Below, in pieces: positions 184 to 9,136 of a stretch of 27,293 nt of DNA (the stretch's first letter is position 1; each line of letters starts with the position of its first letter). The notes beneath the pieces were generated by a model that worked only from the letters and a program-made list of their open reading frames with translations, did no database searches and was not told the DNA's origin. Position numbers and translations under genes: made by a program. Source of the DNA: Promethearchaeota archaeon (GTDB taxonomy: Archaea; Asgardarchaeota; Lokiarchaeia; Sigyniarchaeales; SOKP01); the NCBI GenBank assembly GCA_016839745.1, contig JAEOTS010000015.1, forward strand, positions 1-27,293, in the 5' to 3' direction.

Positions 184-1392
184 TTAAAGACCGAATATTC
201 TTGCTGCTGTCATAATGGATCCGCTTATTAGAGAAACAGTAAAGTTATCGTTGAGTTGAAAGGAAAATAGCTCAACAAGAGGCGCAGCTATCCCACCAAT
301 TATCAAAATAAGTATAGGTATACCTATAGTATTATAAAGGATGAACCCGCTGATTAACACGCATCCAAAATACGCTAATGTACCCTCCAATGTTTTCTGA
401 AATATTTTATGCCTACCATACGCTAATCCAAATATCTTGCTAAAAATATCACCAAAAATTAGGAAAGTTAGCGCTGTAATTGCGATATCTTTATCAAACA
501 ATAGAATAGAAATGAATGTAGCTACGAGAAATATAGTCATAGAAGAAAACTTCTTTTCTTCGCCTTTCTTAAAAATCGACTTGATTTTAACCGTCAATAG
601 ATCGTTTGTTTGTTTATTTAAGAATCTTGTCAACTCAAGCGTAATAAAAGCAATAGCAACAATCCCTATGATAAGAAGAGCGATAATTTTATCGAAGATA
701 ATGTAAAAGAAGATAAACAAAAAGGCAAACGGTCTTGTAGCCACCCGCCACCAATGAGTTTTGAAGTTTTCATCTTCAATTTTTATAACTTTTCCTTTTA
801 TCGTATCATAGAGCGAAACTGACATGTCATACACAACAACAATTAAAAAGAAGAGGTTATAAGGATTTCCAGGATAGTATAGAAACGCAGCGTATCCAAT
901 TAAACCAAGAGCTATAATCGCTACAATTATTCCAGTTTTCGTTACATAAACAAAAATGGCGAGTACAAAAATTAAATATATGAAAATAAAAATTAGCATT
1001 TCGAGACTAGTAAGTAGATAATTTAACAAATAGGCAAGCAAGATGCCTGATGTAGTAGCCATACCTTGACCTCCGCGAAATTTGATATAAAAAGGGAAAA
1101 CATGACCTGCAATAGCTGCTAACCCGCTTAATTGAGCAAATACAAAATCAGCGCCGAGTAATAATGCTAAATAGATCGCTAATATACCTTTAAAAAAATC
1201 AAACGTACCTGTAGGTATAGCATATTTCATGCCTAAACTTTTAAAAGCATTCACCGTTCCAGCAACACCATCCCCTTTTTCCCGTATATCGAAATTTTTC
1301 ATTCTTCCAAAAATATAAGCAGGATTTATTGAACCAATGAAATAACCCAATATTATAGCTACGACATTTATGAAAATTGTGAAAGGCTCCAT
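184..1392 (-). CDS. plsY: Fusion of a PlsY-like glycerol-3-phosphate acyltransferase domain (N-terminal) and a CTP-dependent dolichol/phytol/diacylglycerol kinase-like membrane domain (C-terminal)
   Basis: The N-terminal half has PlsY-type motifs GYFIGSINPA, DIREKGDGVAGTVN, DFFKG and GHVFPFYIKFRGGQGMAT. The C-terminal half has GDIFSKIFGLAYGRHKIFQKTLEGT and ELFSFQLNDNFTV, typical of the CTP-transferase/dolichol-kinase superfamily. The protein is hydrophobic throughout. Confidence 0.8.
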   Translation of the reverse strand: MEPFTIFINVVAIILGYFIGSINPAYIFGRMKNFDIREKGDGVAGTVNAFKSLGMKYAIPTGTFDFFKGILAIYLALLLGADFVFAQLSGLAAIAGHVFPFYIKFRGGQGMATTSGILLAYLLNYLLTSLEMLIFIFIYLIFVLAIFVYVTKTGIIVAIIALGLIGYAAFLYYPGNPYNLFFLIVVVYDMSVSLYDTIKGKVIKIEDENFKTHWWRVATRPFAFLFIFFYIIFDKIIALLIIGIVAIAFITLELTRFLNKQTNDLLTVKIKSIFKKGEEKKFSSMTIFLVATFISILLFDKDIAITALTFLIFGDIFSKIFGLAYGRHKIFQKTLEGTLAYFGCVLISGFILYNTIGIPILILIIGGIAAPLVELFSFQLNDNFTVSLISGSIMTAARIFGL

Positions 1393-1506: not shown

Positions 1507-3237
1507 TTAGAGATGGAGGTACATAAATCGCTCCATATAGTATAAAAAAATTTGATTATAATAACCAGAAAAATAAAAATCACTGGAATGTCCTCCTAAC
1601 AACATCCATATAATAGCACACTTCGTGTTCCCTTTTGCTAAATAAGCGTCTCGAAAGTTGTTACTAATCCCAAAATAGGTGAGAACATCGTGAGTTCCCT
1701 GAAAGATTAAACACGGTGGACTTTCCGCTTCGACTAATTTCTCAGGGTCGGTAAATTCTTCACTTCCACCAATTCCAAAATGCTTCATCTGTCCATTTGA
1801 GGGATAAAATGGAATCAATCCTTTTATTGTCAGGTTCTGACTAAATAAGCTGGGATAATTTCCACTCGCTATTGCTAAACCTGCTGCACTTGCGAGATGT
1901 CCTCCTGCAGATCCTCCGCTAATGAAAACAGAATCCAAATTTGCCCCGTAAATATCGGCATTTAAAGTAATATATTTAGTAAATTCCCCTATATGACGAA
2001 TCATATCATCAATATTAAAAGCTCCCTTATTATAACTAGGAGTAATGAAATCCATTACTGCAACTGAGGAATCATACAATCCATATTGGATATCAAAAAC
2101 TATGTACCCTTGAGCCGCGAAATACTTATTCATCTGCATCATGTTTGACTTTCCTTTATCACCTGATACCCATCCTCCCCCGTGAATCCGAATTAATGTG
2201 GAATTCTGTCCTGGAAGATTATCACTTCTCCCTAATGGCATATATGCATCAAAATATAATTTAATACTCTCATTGTCATAAAATAAAACATTCTCTATAA
2301 TATTGCAATCTTCAGAAGGAATTCCTAAATAATACCCTGCTGTCGAAAAAGAAGTTTGTAGAAAGTAATCGTTTGTCTCATCGGGAATTTCTTGATGCCA
2401 ATTTTGCCCAAACGCCTCTGAAAAGCGTATTTCAGCATTTATTGAAGTGATGTTTGAAAGAAATAAAGGGCTTAGTAATGCTATAGAAACAAAAACTCCT
2501 ACGAGAGCTACTCTGCGAAATCTTTTTCGATCCCATCTCTCCCGCTTTAGCTTCAAAAGAATGATTGTGTTAGATAGGAAGATAAACGATAGGAAAACCC
2601 CATACTGAGACGATATAAAAGTGAGTTGTGTGGCTACAAACTCAAACACTCCAAAAAGAGTTACAAAAGCACAAAAAGCACCAAAAATGAAACCCGTCCA
2701 AGAAACCACTACTAAAATTTTCCTTAGAATACCTTGAAATCTTAAATTTTTCACGGATTTTCTTCGATTGCTTCCATTATCTTGCCCCCACAATTCAGGG
2801 TTCTTTCTTGTAAAGATGTCAAATGATCCCATTAGAATACCAAATGTTAAAATTCCAAAGTAGGAAAGATGAGTCAATGCATATCCTCCCAAAAATCCAC
2901 CTGAAATTTCCCCAGAACTTAACAAATTGCCCTGCATCATACCAAACATAGCCAATATAATAAAAATTAGAAAAACAAAACAAGTTATATATATTTTATA
3001 CCCTATTTTACTCCTTTTGTTAACTCTCAACAAATTAAGGTATACTAGTAAGAGGTTATCAAAAAAAGTGATCGTTAATATTACTCCAAATACGTCCCAA
3101 AAGAACATATGACTAGGAATAGCTATATATAATAATCCTGAGACAAAACAAAATACATTTAATAGAATTAAGGAATAACTTACATTCTTTATAGTAATAA
3201 TCCTTTGAATTTTCCGCATAATATATTTTAAATTCAA
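1507..3237 (-). CDS. Membrane-anchored alpha/beta hydrolase (HSL-like esterase/lipase) with an N-terminal multi-pass membrane domain
   Basis: Oxyanion motif HGGGW, nucleophile GGSAGG (GxSxG), acid in QGTHD and His in GGHSSD. About seven hydrophobic segments lie in the first ~260 aa. TTG start at 3237, alternative ATG at 3219. Confidence 0.85.
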   Translation of the reverse strand: MNLKYIMRKIQRIITIKNVSYSLILLNVFCFVSGLLYIAIPSHMFFWDVFGVILTITFFDNLLLVYLNLLRVNKRSKIGYKIYITCFVFLIFIILAMFGMMQGNLLSSGEISGGFLGGYALTHLSYFGILTFGILMGSFDIFTRKNPELWGQDNGSNRRKSVKNLRFQGILRKILVVVSWTGFIFGAFCAFVTLFGVFEFVATQLTFISSQYGVFLSFIFLSNTIILLKLKRERWDRKRFRRVALVGVFVSIALLSPLFLSNITSINAEIRFSEAFGQNWHQEIPDETNDYFLQTSFSTAGYYLGIPSEDCNIIENVLFYDNESIKLYFDAYMPLGRSDNLPGQNSTLIRIHGGGWVSGDKGKSNMMQMNKYFAAQGYIVFDIQYGLYDSSVAVMDFITPSYNKGAFNIDDMIRHIGEFTKYITLNADIYGANLDSVFISGGSAGGHLASAAGLAIASGNYPSLFSQNLTIKGLIPFYPSNGQMKHFGIGGSEEFTDPEKLVEAESPPCLIFQGTHDVLTYFGISNNFRDAYLAKGNTKCAIIWMLLGGHSSDFYFSGYYNQIFLYYMERFMYLHL

Positions 3238-3644: not shown

Positions 3645-5303
3645 ATGATAGAGAAGCCGAAGATACAACCTCATCATTGGATAGATAAATTAACATCTGA
3701 TTTAATCGAGAATTGGCCAGGAATAAAAAATTTTAACTGTAATTGTGGAATTTCTGTATCTGGTCGACAACATATTGGACGCTTAAGAGGAGAGATAGTC
3801 CTTACGAATGCCGTTGCAAATGAACTCCAAAATCGGGGATATCAAGTCACACACAATTTAATTCTCTATACATCAGACCCATGGAAGGGGAAACCTGCTC
3901 AATTAAAAGCATTTCCAGATTTGAAGAAAGCAAAAGAATATGTTAATTGGCGTTTAATCGATGTCCCTTCTCCTAAGAATCATAAGGAAACCTGGGTTGA
4001 TTATTATTGGAGAGATTTTGGGGAACCAATGCCTAAATTTGGACGAGGCATTCAAATCATCAGAACTCATGAATTATACCAACAAGAGAGAATGAAAGAT
4101 GTAGTAATCGAGCTCATTAACAAAAAAGAAAAGGTCCGAGAAATCTTAAACAAATACCGTAAAGAAAATCCCTTTCCCGAAAATTGGATTCCCATTAATC
4201 CACTATGTCAGCATTGTAATCGAATAGGTACAACCAAAGCTTTGGATGTTAATCTTGATACATATCAAGTTCGTTATTTCTGTGATGATTGTAAGAACGA
4301 AGGATGGTCGGATATTAGCAAGGGAAAATTAACTTGGCGTCTTGAATGGTTGGCAATATGGTACGTTCTTGATATACATTTTGAACCGTATGGAAAGGAC
4401 CATGCTACACCAGGAGGATCCCGCGATAGTTGTATTGAAGTTCTAGAGTCTGTCTTAAATCGTAGAGGTCCATACGGGTTTTGGAATGAATGGGTTGGTT
4501 ACTCAGAAGGTCGAAAAGATTTTGGAGATATGACAAGCTCAGGTTTCATCGGGTTCACACCAACAAAATGGTTAGAATATGCTGAACCAGAAGTATTGAA
4601 ATATATTTATCTCAAAACACCTCCAAAAAAACGTATAATTCTGGGTTTAGATAAGATCCCAAGTTATATTGCAGAATACGATCGAGCCCAGAGAATCTAT
4701 CATAAAATAGAATCGTTTACTGATTCAACCGAACTCCATACAATTCAAAGAAGTTATGAAATTGTGTTTTATAATGACATTCCAGATTATACAGGATTTC
4801 AATTTGACTATCAAACTGCGATTATTCTATCCCAATTAGTAACTCCTGATCAAAAGGGAACTGAACAAGCTATTGAAAAATTGTTAGCAACAGAAATTTT
4901 AAAAGAAAGCCCTTCGAAGGAGATTTTTGACCATATTGAAAAAAGATTAAATCTAGCTAAGAATTGGGTAAATTCAGAATATTCTCCAAAACATCTTAGA
5001 ATACAATTAAGTGAACATGTTTCTCCAGTTGTTTTAAGGCAGTTCAGCGAAAAGATACGTAAGTTTGCATTAGATCTTGGACAAATACTCGAAGAAACAA
5101 AGTGGACTGAGGAAGGGATAAAACAAAAAATGATAACCTTACGAGAAGAAGCTGAAATAAATCGTAAAGACATGAAGCAATTCTTTGAACTGCTCTATCA
5201 ATTGTTTCTTGGAAGCACAAAGGGTCCTCGGTTTGCTCCATTTATAGCTGCCTTGGATAAAAAATGGGTTATTAGTAGGTTTCAAGAAATTGGAAATCTC
5301 TAG
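3645..5303 (+). CDS. lysS: Class I lysyl-tRNA synthetase
   Basis: HIGH-like GISVSGRQHIGRLRGE, Zn motifs CQHC and CDDC, GKLTWRLEW, FEPYGKDHATPGGS, KMSKS-like DMTSSG, and C-terminal LFLGSTKGPRFAPF anticodon-domain motif. Confidence 0.96.
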   Translation: MIEKPKIQPHHWIDKLTSDLIENWPGIKNFNCNCGISVSGRQHIGRLRGEIVLTNAVANELQNRGYQVTHNLILYTSDPWKGKPAQLKAFPDLKKAKEYVNWRLIDVPSPKNHKETWVDYYWRDFGEPMPKFGRGIQIIRTHELYQQERMKDVVIELINKKEKVREILNKYRKENPFPENWIPINPLCQHCNRIGTTKALDVNLDTYQVRYFCDDCKNEGWSDISKGKLTWRLEWLAIWYVLDIHFEPYGKDHATPGGSRDSCIEVLESVLNRRGPYGFWNEWVGYSEGRKDFGDMTSSGFIGFTPTKWLEYAEPEVLKYIYLKTPPKKRIILGLDKIPSYIAEYDRAQRIYHKIESFTDSTELHTIQRSYEIVFYNDIPDYTGFQFDYQTAIILSQLVTPDQKGTEQAIEKLLATEILKESPSKEIFDHIEKRLNLAKNWVNSEYSPKHLRIQLSEHVSPVVLRQFSEKIRKFALDLGQILEETKWTEEGIKQKMITLREEAEINRKDMKQFFELLYQLFLGSTKGPRFAPFIAALDKKWVISRFQEIGNL

Positions 5304-5436
5304 GGAAAAAAAATTTAAAGAAGATACTGTATGACTAGTCTTGTTTAATTCTTAAACGAATTTAGACTACTCAGAAAATAAAAATATATATGAAAAAAAA
5401 AATAATAAAAAACTTTTGAAGCTAGTTCTTAACCGA

Positions 5437-6360
5437 TTAAGCTAATTTCATTCTAATTTGCTTAGATCGGGACCGTAATGTGACCTCTGTTACCTTGGCC
5501 ACTTCTGAGACTTCTGCTTGTGTTTTTCGGCAGTTACTTGATTTGGCCGCCATATATATTACACTTGCCGCTAAGCCTTTAGGGTCTTTCCCTGTTCTTA
5601 ATAGTCCGTTTTTTGACGCGTCTGCGAGCATGTCGATCGCTTTCTTCTGAACTTCCATTGGTAATCCCAAATCGTTTCCGAATCGAAATACTAACTGTTC
5701 GGCTGTAATTGGTTTGTACCTTAGATTTAATTCAGGTAAAACTTCTTTTACAATCATTCCTAAGCTTCTATGAACAGTTCTTCGTGGAGTCATAGAAGCA
5801 TCGCAAACTTCCTCTAATAAACGTGGAAATTCGTGAACCCTGATTGCAGCGTATAATGAAGCAGCAATAAAACCATCAATTGATCTTCCCATGGTTAACT
5901 TCTTCCTTGCAACAACGCTATAAATTTTCCATGCTGTTTCTTTGATATACTCTGGAATGTTTAATTTCGACGTAAGCATTTTTAACTTTGGTTTTGCTTC
6001 CCAAAAGTTTCTTTCAATGCTGGAAATTAAGGAATTCTGAATTTTTGAAAGTCTGGAAAACAGAGTTTTTCCCTTTGCATTAATCAATCTTCCTTTTGAA
6101 TCGATCTTTGAATTTGGTAACATGGTTCTTGGCCCGAACTCTCTCCATCGTGGTTCGGTCCGTCTTCGTTTATTTACTTCTTCTACTGTGTATGCTCTCC
6201 TCTCATTTCCAACTAAGTTCCTACTCTGAATCATTCCGCAGTTTAAACAGACAACATCACCATCTTTTGACTCAACTGAAGGATCTTCGCAACACTGTCC
6301 ACTAGGACTATCCTCTTCTGAATCTCCCTTTGTTGATCGTAGGCGGTCTCGATATGACAT
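5437..6360 (-). CDS. tfb: Transcription initiation factor IIB (archaeal TFB)
   Basis: N-terminal Zn ribbon (CC...VVCLNCG), ERNF, and two cyclin repeats with GRSIDGFIAASLYAAIR, GKDPKGLAASVIY and TQAEVSEVAKVTEVTLRSR. Confidence 0.95.
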   Translation of the reverse strand: MSYRDRLRSTKGDSEEDSPSGQCCEDPSVESKDGDVVCLNCGMIQSRNLVGNERRAYTVEEVNKRRRTEPRWREFGPRTMLPNSKIDSKGRLINAKGKTLFSRLSKIQNSLISSIERNFWEAKPKLKMLTSKLNIPEYIKETAWKIYSVVARKKLTMGRSIDGFIAASLYAAIRVHEFPRLLEEVCDASMTPRRTVHRSLGMIVKEVLPELNLRYKPITAEQLVFRFGNDLGLPMEVQKKAIDMLADASKNGLLRTGKDPKGLAASVIYMAAKSSNCRKTQAEVSEVAKVTEVTLRSRSKQIRMKLA

Positions 6361-6757
6361 ATATTTTCACTTTATTCTTTGTTCGTTTTTGTTAAATAAT
6401 GATTATTCAATTAATACGCAAACTTTTTCGTTAAAATGTATGATCATTATACATTATAAGTTTTTCGAAAATATTACTACAAATAATCTTATTATTATTA
6501 TATATATTGTAAAATATGTAACTCCACTATATAAAAATGTTTTTATCTACAGACGTGATATGTCCCAGAACAAACTTCTAAGTGAGATTTGCGGGTATAT
6601 AATGGGAAAAAGTCAGTTTATTTTTTATAAGTTAATGTTTTCGGATTTTGCTGTTACGCGGTTATTGGAAATCTTTTATATGATATTATCACAAACTAGA
6701 TTATTGCATAATTTTATCGCCCAGTTGTATGGATTAATCTCCAAATTCTCTACAAAT

Positions 6758-7798
6758 TTATTCCTCAATTTTGTTAAAATTTAGTAATTTTCTTGTTATT
6801 TTATTAAAAACCATCTCTACATTGTAGCCTGTTAGAGCAGAAATTTCAAGATATTCAAGGTCTAAAGAATATGAGAGCCTTAACGCATCCCTCTCGCTTA
6901 TAATTCTTTTTTTAACCAAATCCTTCTTATTTCCAATAAGATAACCATTTAGAGCTATATTATTTTTCAAGTAATTTTTTATATCTTGGTGCCATTTTGG
7001 AACATTAGCAAAAGACATTGGATTCGTTAAATCAAAAATAAATAGTAGGATGTTCGCACCCTCATAAAATTTCTTTCTTATGAGTTCAAATTTGGTTTGA
7101 CCTCCCAAATCCCACAACACTAATTCTACAATGTTAGTATCAATATTAAAGATTTTTTGTGTGATATTTAGACCCATCGTTGGAATATATGCCCTAAGAA
7201 ACACGTTATCAGTAAATCTCAGGATTGTAGATGTTTTACCTACCCTCGGGTCTCCTAGGACTACGACTTTAAATTTCCTTTTTTCTACTTGATTATCTTC
7301 AATGATTAATCTTGAGGGTTCTTCTTTCTTTGATACGTACTGGCTTTTAGAAGACAAATATTCTGTTAAATTGCATAAAATGATATGCAATTTCACAATT
7401 TCTTCGTATATTAATTCGTCTATAGTACCATTTTTCTTGAGGGTGAGCATAGTGCTAACAGTTTTACTAAAATATGAATCGATATAACTCATATATCGGT
7501 AATATATCTGATCATTTTCTTCAGCAAATAAAAAGATTATCGCAGACTTAGAAATTCCTTCTTTTTTAGTAGGATCTTCTCTTTTAAAATATTTAATTAA
7601 TACTTTTATTTTTAGAGGTGAAATAGGAAAAATTAAGAGAACTTCCGGGATGAAAGTTGGATCACCAGATATAATCGAAATACACTCCTCAACAATATCT
7701 CTTCGGTATTTCTCTGATAGATTATAAGGATACCAAAAATTAATCTTTGGAGTATCCTTATCTATATCCAGATAAATGATTGCGTTTGTAGAATCCAT
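6758..7798 (-). CDS. Rab-like small GTPase with an N-terminal ~150-aa longin/uDENN-like domain
   Basis: G1 GDPRVGKT, G2 YIPTMG, G3 WDLGGQ, G4 NKKD, G5 SAL, plus Rab-like FYEGA. The N-terminal IIYLDIDKDTPKINFWYP resembles the beta-hairpin-Pro start of uDENN/NPRL2-type longins (inferred). Confidence 0.9.
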   Translation of the reverse strand: MDSTNAIIYLDIDKDTPKINFWYPYNLSEKYRRDIVEECISIISGDPTFIPEVLLIFPISPLKIKVLIKYFKREDPTKKEGISKSAIIFLFAEENDQIYYRYMSYIDSYFSKTVSTMLTLKKNGTIDELIYEEIVKLHIILCNLTEYLSSKSQYVSKKEEPSRLIIEDNQVEKRKFKVVVLGDPRVGKTSTILRFTDNVFLRAYIPTMGLNITQKIFNIDTNIVELVLWDLGGQTKFELIRKKFYEGANILLFIFDLTNPMSFANVPKWHQDIKNYLKNNIALNGYLIGNKKDLVKKRIISERDALRLSYSLDLEYLEISALTGYNVEMVFNKITRKLLNFNKIEE

Positions 7799-7855
7799 TT
7801 CAATCTAAATTAAATCGATAATTCTTATATTAAATTACTAATTCACTGATTTAAA

Positions 7856-9136
7856 TTATTTGTTTATTAATGGAAGAATTTGTGGTCCATTAGGTAAAAT
7901 AAGTATGGACGCGTCTTTTCCATGTTTTATTATAGATTGTTTTATTGCATTTTCTACAGTGTTAGCATATTTTAAACCGATATTTCCGATTTCCTCCTCT
8001 TTCATATTAGATACAAGATATACTTCAGACTTCATTAATATTCGGGCTAATACTTGAATTTCCCATTGATCAGGTATAACTATATCTTTCTTTAGGATTT
8101 TATTATAGATTTCTTCTGGAGCTTTTCCAGAAAAAATAAGCTCTTTAAACTTATCTTGTCCTACGCCAACTCCTTCTTTGCACTCATTTACTGAAATTAT
8201 AGTGCCTCCTCGCTTTACACCCATTTCTCCGATTGCCATACTTTTTACAGCTTGATAAAGGTTGAGATCTAAAGGGAAACCTCCATTTCCACAAACCACG
8301 ATATCGAACAATTCTTTAATTTCCTTGAAAATATGTTTGCTTTGATAATCAACTAATCTTTTATGAACCAATTCTAAATCACCAGCAGCTACTTGAATGA
8401 TTTCGTGTTTTTTATTAATGCATACATTAATAGTGAAATCTACACCAACTTTTCTTGCATGTCTAGATGAATGTTCAGGTAGTGGATTATTTTCATAGAT
8501 TCCAAATCGGGCATACGGAGAAGCTATATTTTCGGCGGAGTGATTTGCTAATATAGTTTCAGCACCTGCTAAACCAGGAACAATGGATTTATATCCCCCC
8601 GAAAAACCAAAGAAAAAGTGAGGTTCAACATATCCGGTTAAAATTTTTAGATCGCTTTCATAATAGTGTTTATTTATATCAATAGGATTCTCAAAATCGT
8701 TAGTTTGTAATGATACCAGAGATTTCTTATCGGTTGCAATGTGATTGATTATTTGAACATCACTGGTTAAAATTGAACCTAAAATTCTATTTAGTTCCTC
8801 TTTATGGGTTGGGCGGTGCAATCCCGTGGCAATTAAGATCCTGATATTTTTATATTGAATTCCATAATTTGTCAATTCTTTTAAAAGCCCTTCTAGAATA
8901 AGATGAGTTGGAACTGGTCGCGTTGCATCTGAAACTACAATACATACAGACTTGATCTTATTTTTATTTTTTATAATTGCCTTTAATGAGTTATTTCCCA
9001 CAGGATTTTTAATAGCATCCCTGATCGCTTTAATTGGATTTTCGATTGGAAATAGCTCCGTAGGTTGAATAATTTTCGTGTTCCAATTAGGATCAATCTC
9101 TAACTGAATTCCATTTTTTCCGTAGTCTAATTTCAT
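7856..9136 (-). CDS. larA: LarA-family nickel-pincer-dependent racemase/epimerase (DUF2088)
   Basis: SDATRP, IATGLHR, EPHFFFGFSGGYKSIVPG, PLDLNLYQAVK, DQWE. Substrate specificity is not determinable from the sequence. Confidence 0.9.
   Translation of the reverse strand: MKLDYGKNGIQLEIDPNWNTKIIQPTELFPIENPIKAIRDAIKNPVGNNSLKAIIKNKNKIKSVCIVVSDATRPVPTHLILEGLLKELTNYGIQYKNIRILIATGLHRPTHKEELNRILGSILTSDVQIINHIATDKKSLVSLQTNDFENPIDINKHYYESDLKILTGYVEPHFFFGFSGGYKSIVPGLAGAETILANHSAENIASPYARFGIYENNPLPEHSSRHARKVGVDFTINVCINKKHEIIQVAAGDLELVHKRLVDYQSKHIFKEIKELFDIVVCGNGGFPLDLNLYQAVKSMAIGEMGVKRGGTIISVNECKEGVGVGQDKFKELIFSGKAPEEIYNKILKKDIVIPDQWEIQVLARILMKSEVYLVSNMKEEEIGNIGLKYANTVENAIKQSIIKHGKDASILILPNGPQILPLINK

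Follow-up and report, generated by a model that had tools for sequence, protein, structure and literature searches.

Homologues of PlsY, the bacterial acyl-phosphate:glycerol-3-phosphate acyltransferase, in Lokiarchaeota and Thorarchaeota have repeatedly been cited for possible bacterial-type or chimeric ester lipids (PMC6737245, PMC6431249, PMC13400652), and according to a 2022 review the function of the Asgard homologues is still to be elucidated (PMC9385802). What such a protein does is the question raised by a gene in a 27,293-nucleotide stretch of the Promethearchaeota archaeon assembly GCA_016839745.1 (contig JAEOTS010000015.1, positions 1 to 27,293; hereafter the window). The gene lies at 184..1392 on the minus strand, with its stop codon at 184-186, and the list of open reading frames (ORFs) and the translation give a two-domain polytopic membrane protein of 402 amino acids (aa). 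Its parts are of known kinds, a PlsY fold and a CTP-type kinase-like domain, here combined in one conserved fusion. Judged from motifs and alignments, the product appears to consist of a PlsY-like half without a grip on glycerol-3-phosphate (G3P) and a strictly conserved CTP-type lipid kinase half. We propose, with a probability of roughly 0.55, that it is a bifunctional, cytoplasm-facing lipid-phosphate enzyme with an acceptor other than G3P and not a genuine acyl-phosphate:glycerol-3-phosphate acyltransferase.

In a sequence search, many Asgard metagenome-assembled genomes (MAGs) proved to contain full-length orthologues (about 400 aa, 52-88% identity), and the named relatives came from Promethearchaeota, Lokiarchaeota and other Asgard MAGs. 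Among public sequencing runs, none from RNA was listed as holding this sequence. The full-length AlphaFold model (pLDDT 80) contains approximately 14 transmembrane (TM) helices. All motif strings discussed below were re-translated by coordinate and each was found at its place.

The PlsY-like half

The N-terminal domain (aa 1-204; 781..1392, minus strand) has seven TM helices. PF02660 matched aa 15-184 in Pfam (E 1.3e-31) and PlsY of Aquifex aeolicus (5xj5) was aligned to aa 12-189 by phmmer (E 3.6e-17). Foldseek with the full-length model matched 5xj5-5xj8 (5xj5 with E 3.4e-5 and TMt 0.65) and recovered PlsY alone, and a profile-profile alignment (hhalign) of 97 fusion N-halves with canonical PlsY had a probability of 99.9% and ended at residue 188. 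In its 7-TM fold and its homology over aa 12-189 this half is therefore the same as bacterial PlsY (PF02660, TIGR00023; A. aeolicus 5XJ5-5XJ9). It differs in that it scores 89 bits against the TIGR00023 equivalog model, under the cutoff of 137.2, in that it is joined to a second enzyme domain, and in that it coexists with canonical PlsY in bacteria.

To read the active site we used the residue roles in acyl-phosphate and G3P binding that Li et al. assigned for A. aeolicus PlsY (aaPlsY; PMC5700162). Conservation was counted in 97 fusion proteins from 82 loci, 81 of Asgard and 16 of bacterial MAGs, and all counts out of 97 refer to this set. The phosphate hole for acyl-phosphate is present. His97 (1102..1104, minus strand), the equivalent of aaPlsY His92 that binds the phosphate of the acyl-phosphate (PMC5700162), is found in 97/97 proteins, as are G107 and G108, and G110 is found in 96/97. 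These glycines lie in the motif 2 loop FRGGQGMA (1057..1080, minus strand), in which Lys104 is replaced by Gln109. Thr46 at the Ala40 position and Asn48 at the Asn42 position are each conserved in 96 of the 97 proteins, and the DIR and DxxKG elements of bacterial PlsY are kept along with the GGxG loop.

The residues on the G3P side are mostly different. Alignment to 5xj5 shows five changes in motif 1, which reads GDGVAGTVNAFK (1240..1275, minus strand) for canonical GSGNxGATNxxR; from aaPlsY to the window protein these are S35 to D41, N37 to V43, A40 to T46, T41 to V47 and R45 to K51. At the four positions of the G3P phosphate clamp (Ser35, Arg45, Lys104 and Asn180) the window protein thus has D41, K51 and Q109, and no alignable Asn180. 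The fusions vary at these places: position 41 is T in 61, S in 17 and D in 16 proteins, position 51 is R in just 25/97, and position 109 is Q in 77, R in 10, E in 6 and K in 4. Position 43, equivalent to the Asn37 of oxyanion stabilisation, is still N in 79/97; V or I is restricted to the clade of the window protein and its sister clade, and the window protein itself, with Val43, lacks this Asn.

The place where canonical motif 3 (RHxxNIxRL) is expected, as located with hhalign, the motif strings of the 97 proteins and MAFFT with canonical PlsY, is taken by the last helix of the PlsY half, VYDMSVSLYDTIKGK (790..834, minus strand). This helix contains no HxxN, and motif 3 (His177-x-x-Asn180-I-x-R-L) was not recognisable in the comparison of the 97 N-halves with canonical PlsY, since the profile alignment stops at residue 188, ahead of that motif. 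The same alignment deletes the 'VSL' segment of canonical PlsY, which we take to be the carrier of Ser142, the contact for the 2-OH of G3P. The downstream string HWWRVATRP was considered as motif 3 and ruled out, because stand-alone kinase homologues begin with it.

The donor site of the PlsY half, the pocket for phosphate and carbonyl of a lipid acyl-phosphate, is thus kept, and most of the residues that clamp G3P are lost. As the changes are conserved across orthologues, they represent re-specification and not decay. The 12-member clade of the window protein diverges further, with D41, V/I43, D189 and D196, of which Asp189 and Asp196 are clade-specific; the three new aspartates and the loss of Asn37 suggest that the acceptor in this clade is neutral or cationic.

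Both the annotation and the lipid-divide literature assume a functional glycerol-phosphate acyltransferase, acting on G3P or glycerol-1-phosphate (G1P), to which the kinase domain would be a helper. The PF02660 match and the label PlsY given by the sources agree with this assumption, as do the fusions that have Lys at the 104 position (4/97) or Arg at the 45 position (25/97), and bacterial PlsY takes both G3P and G1P (PMC13400652). However, alanine or conservative changes at G3P-site residues of aaPlsY led to more than 90% loss of activity, with K104R (about 25% retained) as the exception (PMC5700162). The window protein has S35D, N37V, R45K and K104Q at once and lacks motif 3, where comparable single changes were that costly, and it stays under the TIGR00023 cutoff. 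In the bacteria with the fusion, PlsX and a canonical PlsY are encoded separately, and for cultured Lokiarchaeota archaeal lipids alone have been reported. Given the aaPlsY mutational data, ordinary PlsY activity is the least likely of the explanations considered here and seems very improbable.

The CTP-type kinase-like half

The second domain begins at about aa 205-210 and extends to the C-terminus (aa 205-402; 187..780, minus strand). This half alone gave no usable match in Pfam or NCBIfam, and it was assigned from a model, a structural search and 2316 homologues. Among the homologues, obtained by an exhaustive HMMER search at E<=1e-3, both fusions (about 400 aa) and stand-alone proteins (about 190 aa) were numerous. 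PF01148 (CTP_transf_1) was matched at E<=0.01 by 8/42 stand-alone homologues and not by the window C-half; P0261, among the stand-alone homologues scanned individually, reached 27.6 bits against a cutoff of 24. A profile of stand-alone relatives aligned with Thermotoga CdsA (4q2e) over the GD...G...G...K(S/T)xEG stretch (E 0.019), and the same homologue-based profile of the C-half aligned with E. coli CdsA at E 8.8e-5.

Structure comparison led to the same superfamily. The C-half model built on the homologue alignment had a pLDDT of 93.6, and in a VIA structural search of 48,161 chains CdsA (4q2e) ranked first (Z 10.4, 171 residues aligned) and archaeal CarS (5guf) second (Z 7.6). To our knowledge, CdsA and CarS are the sole solved members of the CdsA/CarS/polyprenol-kinase superfamily. 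The top match of Foldseek for the C-half alone, 4q2g, was weak (probability 0.90, E 0.16), and the sub-0.9 matches in the ESM Atlas, named "putative phosphatidate cytidylyltransferase" and "diacylglycerol/polyprenol kinase family protein", were taken as leads only.

The kinase-like half starts with the basic string HWWRVATRP (730..756, minus strand), which contains Arg216 and Arg220 and is regarded as the start of the kinase domain because it is here, with RKxxR/H, that the stand-alone homologues begin; a comparable Arg-Lys-x-x-His clamp has been described in the literature for PfPolK. The CTP-binding-type motif DIFSKIFGLAYGRHKIFQKTLEG (aa 315-337; 382..450, minus strand) was compared by regex with DxxAxxxGxxxGx8KKTxEG, the CTP motif of dolichol kinase given in PMC13586052, and matches it with Ser in place of Ala, a spacer that lacks 3 residues and one Lys where the published motif has KK. 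The acidic E...DN motif ELFSFQLNDN (244..273, minus strand) lies where CdsA has its cytidylyltransferase signature. All twelve positions tested in the kinase half (R216, R220, E278, S283, D315, G322, G326, E336, G337, E374, D382 and N383) are invariant in 97/97 proteins and K333 is kept in 93/97, so that the C-half is under very strong purifying selection.

The signature of CdsA was searched for with a PROSITE-type pattern, S-x-[LIVMF]-K-R-x4-K-D...H-G-G-x-D-R-x-D, which was validated on E. coli CdsA, where it is present at residue 239. The pattern occurred in 0/97 fusions and 0/42 stand-alone homologues, and the window protein contains no HGG. Therefore, the C-half falls in the kinase-like branch and not in the CDP-alcohol-forming branch. 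CdsA (4Q2E/4Q2G) and CarS (5GUF) are its best structural matches and the GD...G...G...K(S/T)xEG region can be aligned, but the alignment to CdsA ends just ahead of the signature that the C-half lacks. Sequence and model together indicate an apparently intact member of the CTP-dependent polyprenol/dolichol/phytol/diacylglycerol (DAG)-kinase branch of the CdsA superfamily. With DOLK/Sec59, VTE5, FOLK, PfPolK and yeast Dgk1 (PF01148 superfamily) it shares the DxxAxxxGxxxG...K(T/S)xEG-type motif, the basic N-terminal clamp, the acidic E...DN near the C-terminus and the membrane fold that is common to CdsA and CarS. It differs from these kinases in its short length (about 198 aa), in the Ser, the shorter spacer and the single Lys of the CTP-type motif, and in forming a subfamily apart, which is marked by an invariant E..(F)SSMT motif and is fused to a PlsY fold; the window C-half alone also remains under Pfam detection.

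The first-pass annotation, made from the window's sequence, had described a PlsY-like domain with changed motifs that is followed from about aa 210 by a CTP-dependent lipid kinase domain. This description holds for motif 1 and for the change of GGKG to GGQG, both re-translated and, as changes, conserved across orthologues, for the missing HxxNIxRL ahead of the second domain, for the place where that domain starts and for its GD...G...KTLEG and DN motifs. Pfam identified the N-half only; the membership of the C-half in the CdsA/CarS/polyprenol-kinase superfamily comes from fold and profile comparison, with a Pfam match in 8/42 stand-alone homologues.

The genome of the window encodes 7 more polyprenol-kinase-like paralogues, on contigs C57, C85, C29, C38 (two, in tandem), C41 and C149 (L100-L105), as ORFs of 250-394 aa with N-terminal membrane extensions of other kinds. 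A stand-alone kinase-like protein of 193 aa without a PlsY domain (P0203, JGI) bears in its source the label 'glycerol-3-phosphate acyltransferase PlsY', an annotation that was apparently carried over from fusions.

The closest characterised kinases act on prenols, which raises the possibility of prenol salvage. The kinase half would then make a prenyl (geranylgeranyl, phytyl or polyprenyl) monophosphate and the PlsY half would carry out the next step, a second phosphorylation or a prenyl transfer, comparable to VTE5/VTE6 of plants. The phosphate hole could accommodate a lipid monophosphate. However, the chemistry of PlsY relies on the activated anhydride of an acyl-phosphate, the PlsY half has no evident nucleotide site, its carbonyl-binding positions T46 and N48 are conserved, and the G1P/G3P clamp that ether-lipid formation would require is lost. 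We consider this improbable, if less so than ordinary PlsY activity.

Coupling of the two halves and the proposed reaction

The two halves occur together in other arrangements than the fusion. A protein from a marine metagenome (P0252) is a reverse-order fusion with the kinase-like domain first and a PlsY of the same divergent type second (GNRKPGTANVAR, GGGG), and in a WOR-3 genome the halves form a split operon, in which the stop of one gene overlaps the start of the other (PlsY-like, 191 aa, and kinase-like, 195 aa). Fusion, reverse-order fusion and split operon imply that the halves are functionally or evolutionarily coupled, as the first-pass annotation had supposed when it suggested a two-step membrane enzyme. 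The PlsY topology known from the literature has seven TM helices and an active site on the cytoplasmic side. Since the models give 7 TM helices for the PlsY half and the kinase half reads as 7 membrane passes, both active sites, or the conserved polar residues that mark them, are predicted to face the cytoplasm in either domain order.

Alternatively, the PlsY half may be a pseudoenzyme, a non-catalytic module that binds lipid-phosphate and holds what an ordinary polyprenol/dolichol kinase consumes or makes. The PlsY half has lost most G3P-contacting residues and, in the clade of the window protein, also the oxyanion Asn37 (V/I), conservation is stricter in the kinase half, and the 7 further kinase-like paralogues in the genome carry other N-terminal membrane extensions. 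Against this, H97, the GGxG loop, T46, N48 and G45 show no or almost no variation in Asgard and bacterial proteins alike, N37 is kept in 79/97, and the PlsY-like gene of the WOR-3 split form retains GSGN..R and GGKG. The conservation of the donor site argues for a working site, and a purely binding role is unlikely, although somewhat less so than prenol salvage.

Many Asgard loci contain tandem fusion paralogues, with three copies each in L036, L039 and L067 and two each in L007-L010, L013, L017, L018, L024, L029, L044 and L065. The tandem copies vary at former G3P-clamp positions (e.g. GGQG, GGRG and GGKG), which suggests several specificities.

The fusion is not confined to archaea, as it was also found at 37-51% identity in MAGs of WOR-3, Latescibacterota, Poribacteria, Aminicenantes and Clostridia. 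The FastTree phylogeny of these fusions (97 proteins; midpoint root only) places the Asgard sequences in one group (support 93), with the bacterial ones outside. All five bacterial genomes with the fusion that were searched (5/5) also have PlsX and a canonical PlsY of about 200 aa, with a full-length match that includes motif 3; the PF02660 scores in these genomes are 170-181 bits for canonical PlsY versus 101-118 for the fusions. The presence of canonical PlsY and PlsX beside the fusion in bacteria indicates that the fusion is a paralogue with another job.

The sample covered 201 genomes from the phylum to which the window belongs, and 64 of them have PF02660. Within the family the count is 21/40 genomes (13/16 in the genus), always with ORFs of about 400 aa, and the fusion is absent from one 100%-complete genome of the genus. 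Such patchy presence is as expected of an accessory function. The first-pass annotation had drawn a link to Asgard archaea; the fusion is neither specific to them, given the five bacterial groups, nor general in the window's family. No characterised bacterial protein of this architecture with ordinary PlsY activity came to light, and the substitutions are conserved in orthologues. The papers found in the literature search treat the Asgard gene as a PlsY without settling its function, and no paper linking PlsY with dolichol kinase was among them.

Other Asgard families have stand-alone genes of 220-250 aa that score 150-182 bits, in 21/21 genomes of family f5 and 7/7 of f14. Representatives of f5, f14 and f27 contain GSGN..R, GGK and RHxxN and are canonical-type PlsY (e.g. 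G031:C1:2063676-2064275, which is L106; also L109 and L110). In some f27 genomes PF02660 is matched up to 11 times.

The supply of acyl-phosphate bears on which reaction the fusion could carry out. PlsX (PF02504), the acyl-phosphate supplier for PlsY, was found in 0/201 phylum genomes by a profile search that did match the control genomes, and in the window's own genome (89% complete) a profile search found no PlsX, DegV or acetate kinase. We envisage that both halves act on a membrane lipid as parts of one pathway and that the PlsY half would catalyse transfer from a lipid-phosphate donor to an acceptor other than phosphorylated glycerol. For the way in which they are coupled we tentatively favour a route in which the kinase half uses CTP to phosphorylate a free fatty acid or another membrane lipid and passes the labile product directly to the PlsY half, although the probability of this particular coupling is low in absolute terms. 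Such a route would serve salvage or remodelling and would require neither PlsX nor FakAB. In a more specific and slightly less probable version, the kinase half would be a fatty-acid (carboxylate) kinase embedded in the membrane, whose acyl-phosphate would be formed in situ and channelled to a PlsY fold of altered specificity, which would acylate an acceptor other than G3P. As in the PlsX/PlsY and FakAB/PlsY pathways, acyl-phosphate would then be made before acyl transfer in the membrane, if the preferred model holds. The difference would be that the kinase is a CTP-type integral membrane protein fused to the transferase and unrelated to PlsX, FakA and FakB, and that the acceptor is not G3P.

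The order of the two steps may also be reversed. The PlsY half would then acylate a neutral alcohol (glycerol, a monoalkyl- or monoacylglycerol, archaeol or a prenol) and the kinase half, acting like Dgk1, would phosphorylate the product with CTP to a (lyso)phosphatidate-like lipid. An unphosphorylated acceptor would agree with the lost cationic phosphate clamp, CTP-dependent lipid-alcohol kinases belong to the kinase superfamily, and the evidence from the fused, reverse and split forms fits equally well. However, this order requires an external source of acyl-phosphate, where PlsX was found in none of the 201 Asgard genomes and neither DegV nor acetate kinase was found in the window's genome, and the data do not point to a particular acceptor. 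We regard acylation first as unlikely, behind the fatty-acid kinase version and a little ahead of the binding-only module. The explanations thus rank from a labile lipid-phosphate made for the PlsY half, through acylation of a neutral alcohol followed by phosphorylation, a binding-only module and prenol salvage, to ordinary PlsY.

Several observations weigh against the bifunctional enzyme that we propose, or against the coupling that we prefer for it. Firstly, the mapping of motif 3 and Ser142 comes from sequence alignment. Secondly, the window C-half lies under every Pfam threshold, and we know of no enzyme of the CTP_transf_1 superfamily that phosphorylates a carboxylate. Thirdly, the Asgard families with canonical PlsY also lack PlsX, and its absence therefore does not single out the fusion, which weakens it as a fusion-specific argument. 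Lastly, at one bacterial locus (L070) a gene of the acetate/butyrate-kinase family (4869-5936, plus strand; PF00871, 91 bits) is found upstream of the fusion (5980-7176) at a distance of 44 bp and could, in this single case, supply acyl-phosphate without the fused kinase.

If the fatty-acid kinase version were true, acyl activation and transfer would form one self-contained system that does without PlsX and FakAB. The CdsA/dolichol-kinase superfamily would gain a new type of reaction, and Asgard archaea would have a concrete way to make ester-linked lipids.

Gene neighbourhood and meaning for Asgard lipids

An esterase gene (1507..3237, minus strand) lies 114 bp upstream of the fusion gene. 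Its product of 576 aa has an N-terminal multi-TM region and a C-terminal BD-FAE/Abhydrolase_3 domain (HGGGW, GGSAGG). The gap between the two genes contains a TATAAAAG box, and the fusion may therefore have its own promoter. The esterase was considered as a functional partner of the fusion, and this was not upheld. Of the 53 loci with enough flank, 21 have the esterase upstream on the same strand and no bacterial locus does, a TFIIB gene stands between esterase and fusion in many loci (L042-type), and within the genus most esterase orthologues are on contigs other than that of the fusion. Some genomes have the fusion without the esterase (G054, G182) and others the esterase without the fusion (G161, G173, G188, G191). 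Because of this mismatch and the loose synteny, the esterase is seen as part of a syntenic block and not as a demonstrated partner.

Further along the window are a class I lysyl-tRNA synthetase-like ORF (3645-5303, plus strand) and the TFIIB gene (5437-6360, minus strand). TFIIB, esterase and fusion make up the syntenic block, the order of which varies among Lokiarchaeia (L042, L096). The window's own genome has two fusion copies with 83-86% nucleotide identity. The second esterase and fusion locus is on contig C23 (G000, L082; esterase 43-1290, fusion 1447-2667), with DNA 83-86% identical to the window locus, and represents either a true duplication or two related populations in one bin (contamination 5.8%).

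The bacterial fusions had no consistent neighbourhood; the neighbours seen were MutL, ApbE, YidC, Lgt and the acetate-kinase family. In an uncultured bacterium (L079) the fusion (5995-7191) lies between yidC (4454-5998) and lgt (7191-7952), which encodes prolipoprotein diacylglyceryl transferase, all on the plus strand and with overlapping gene ends.

For the lipids of Asgard archaea this means that the label PlsY needs to be read with care. The annotation error is spreading, as even stand-alone kinase-like proteins are labelled PlsY. Since the PlsY half lacks the G3P residues and its bacterial counterparts stand beside a full PlsX/PlsY, the fusion is not straightforward evidence of G3P ester-lipid synthesis, and on these sequence comparisons it would count as weak evidence for bacterial-type membranes in Lokiarchaeota-type Asgard archaea. 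Other Asgard families do have canonical-type PlsY, and therefore arguments on the lipid divide have to be made lineage by lineage.

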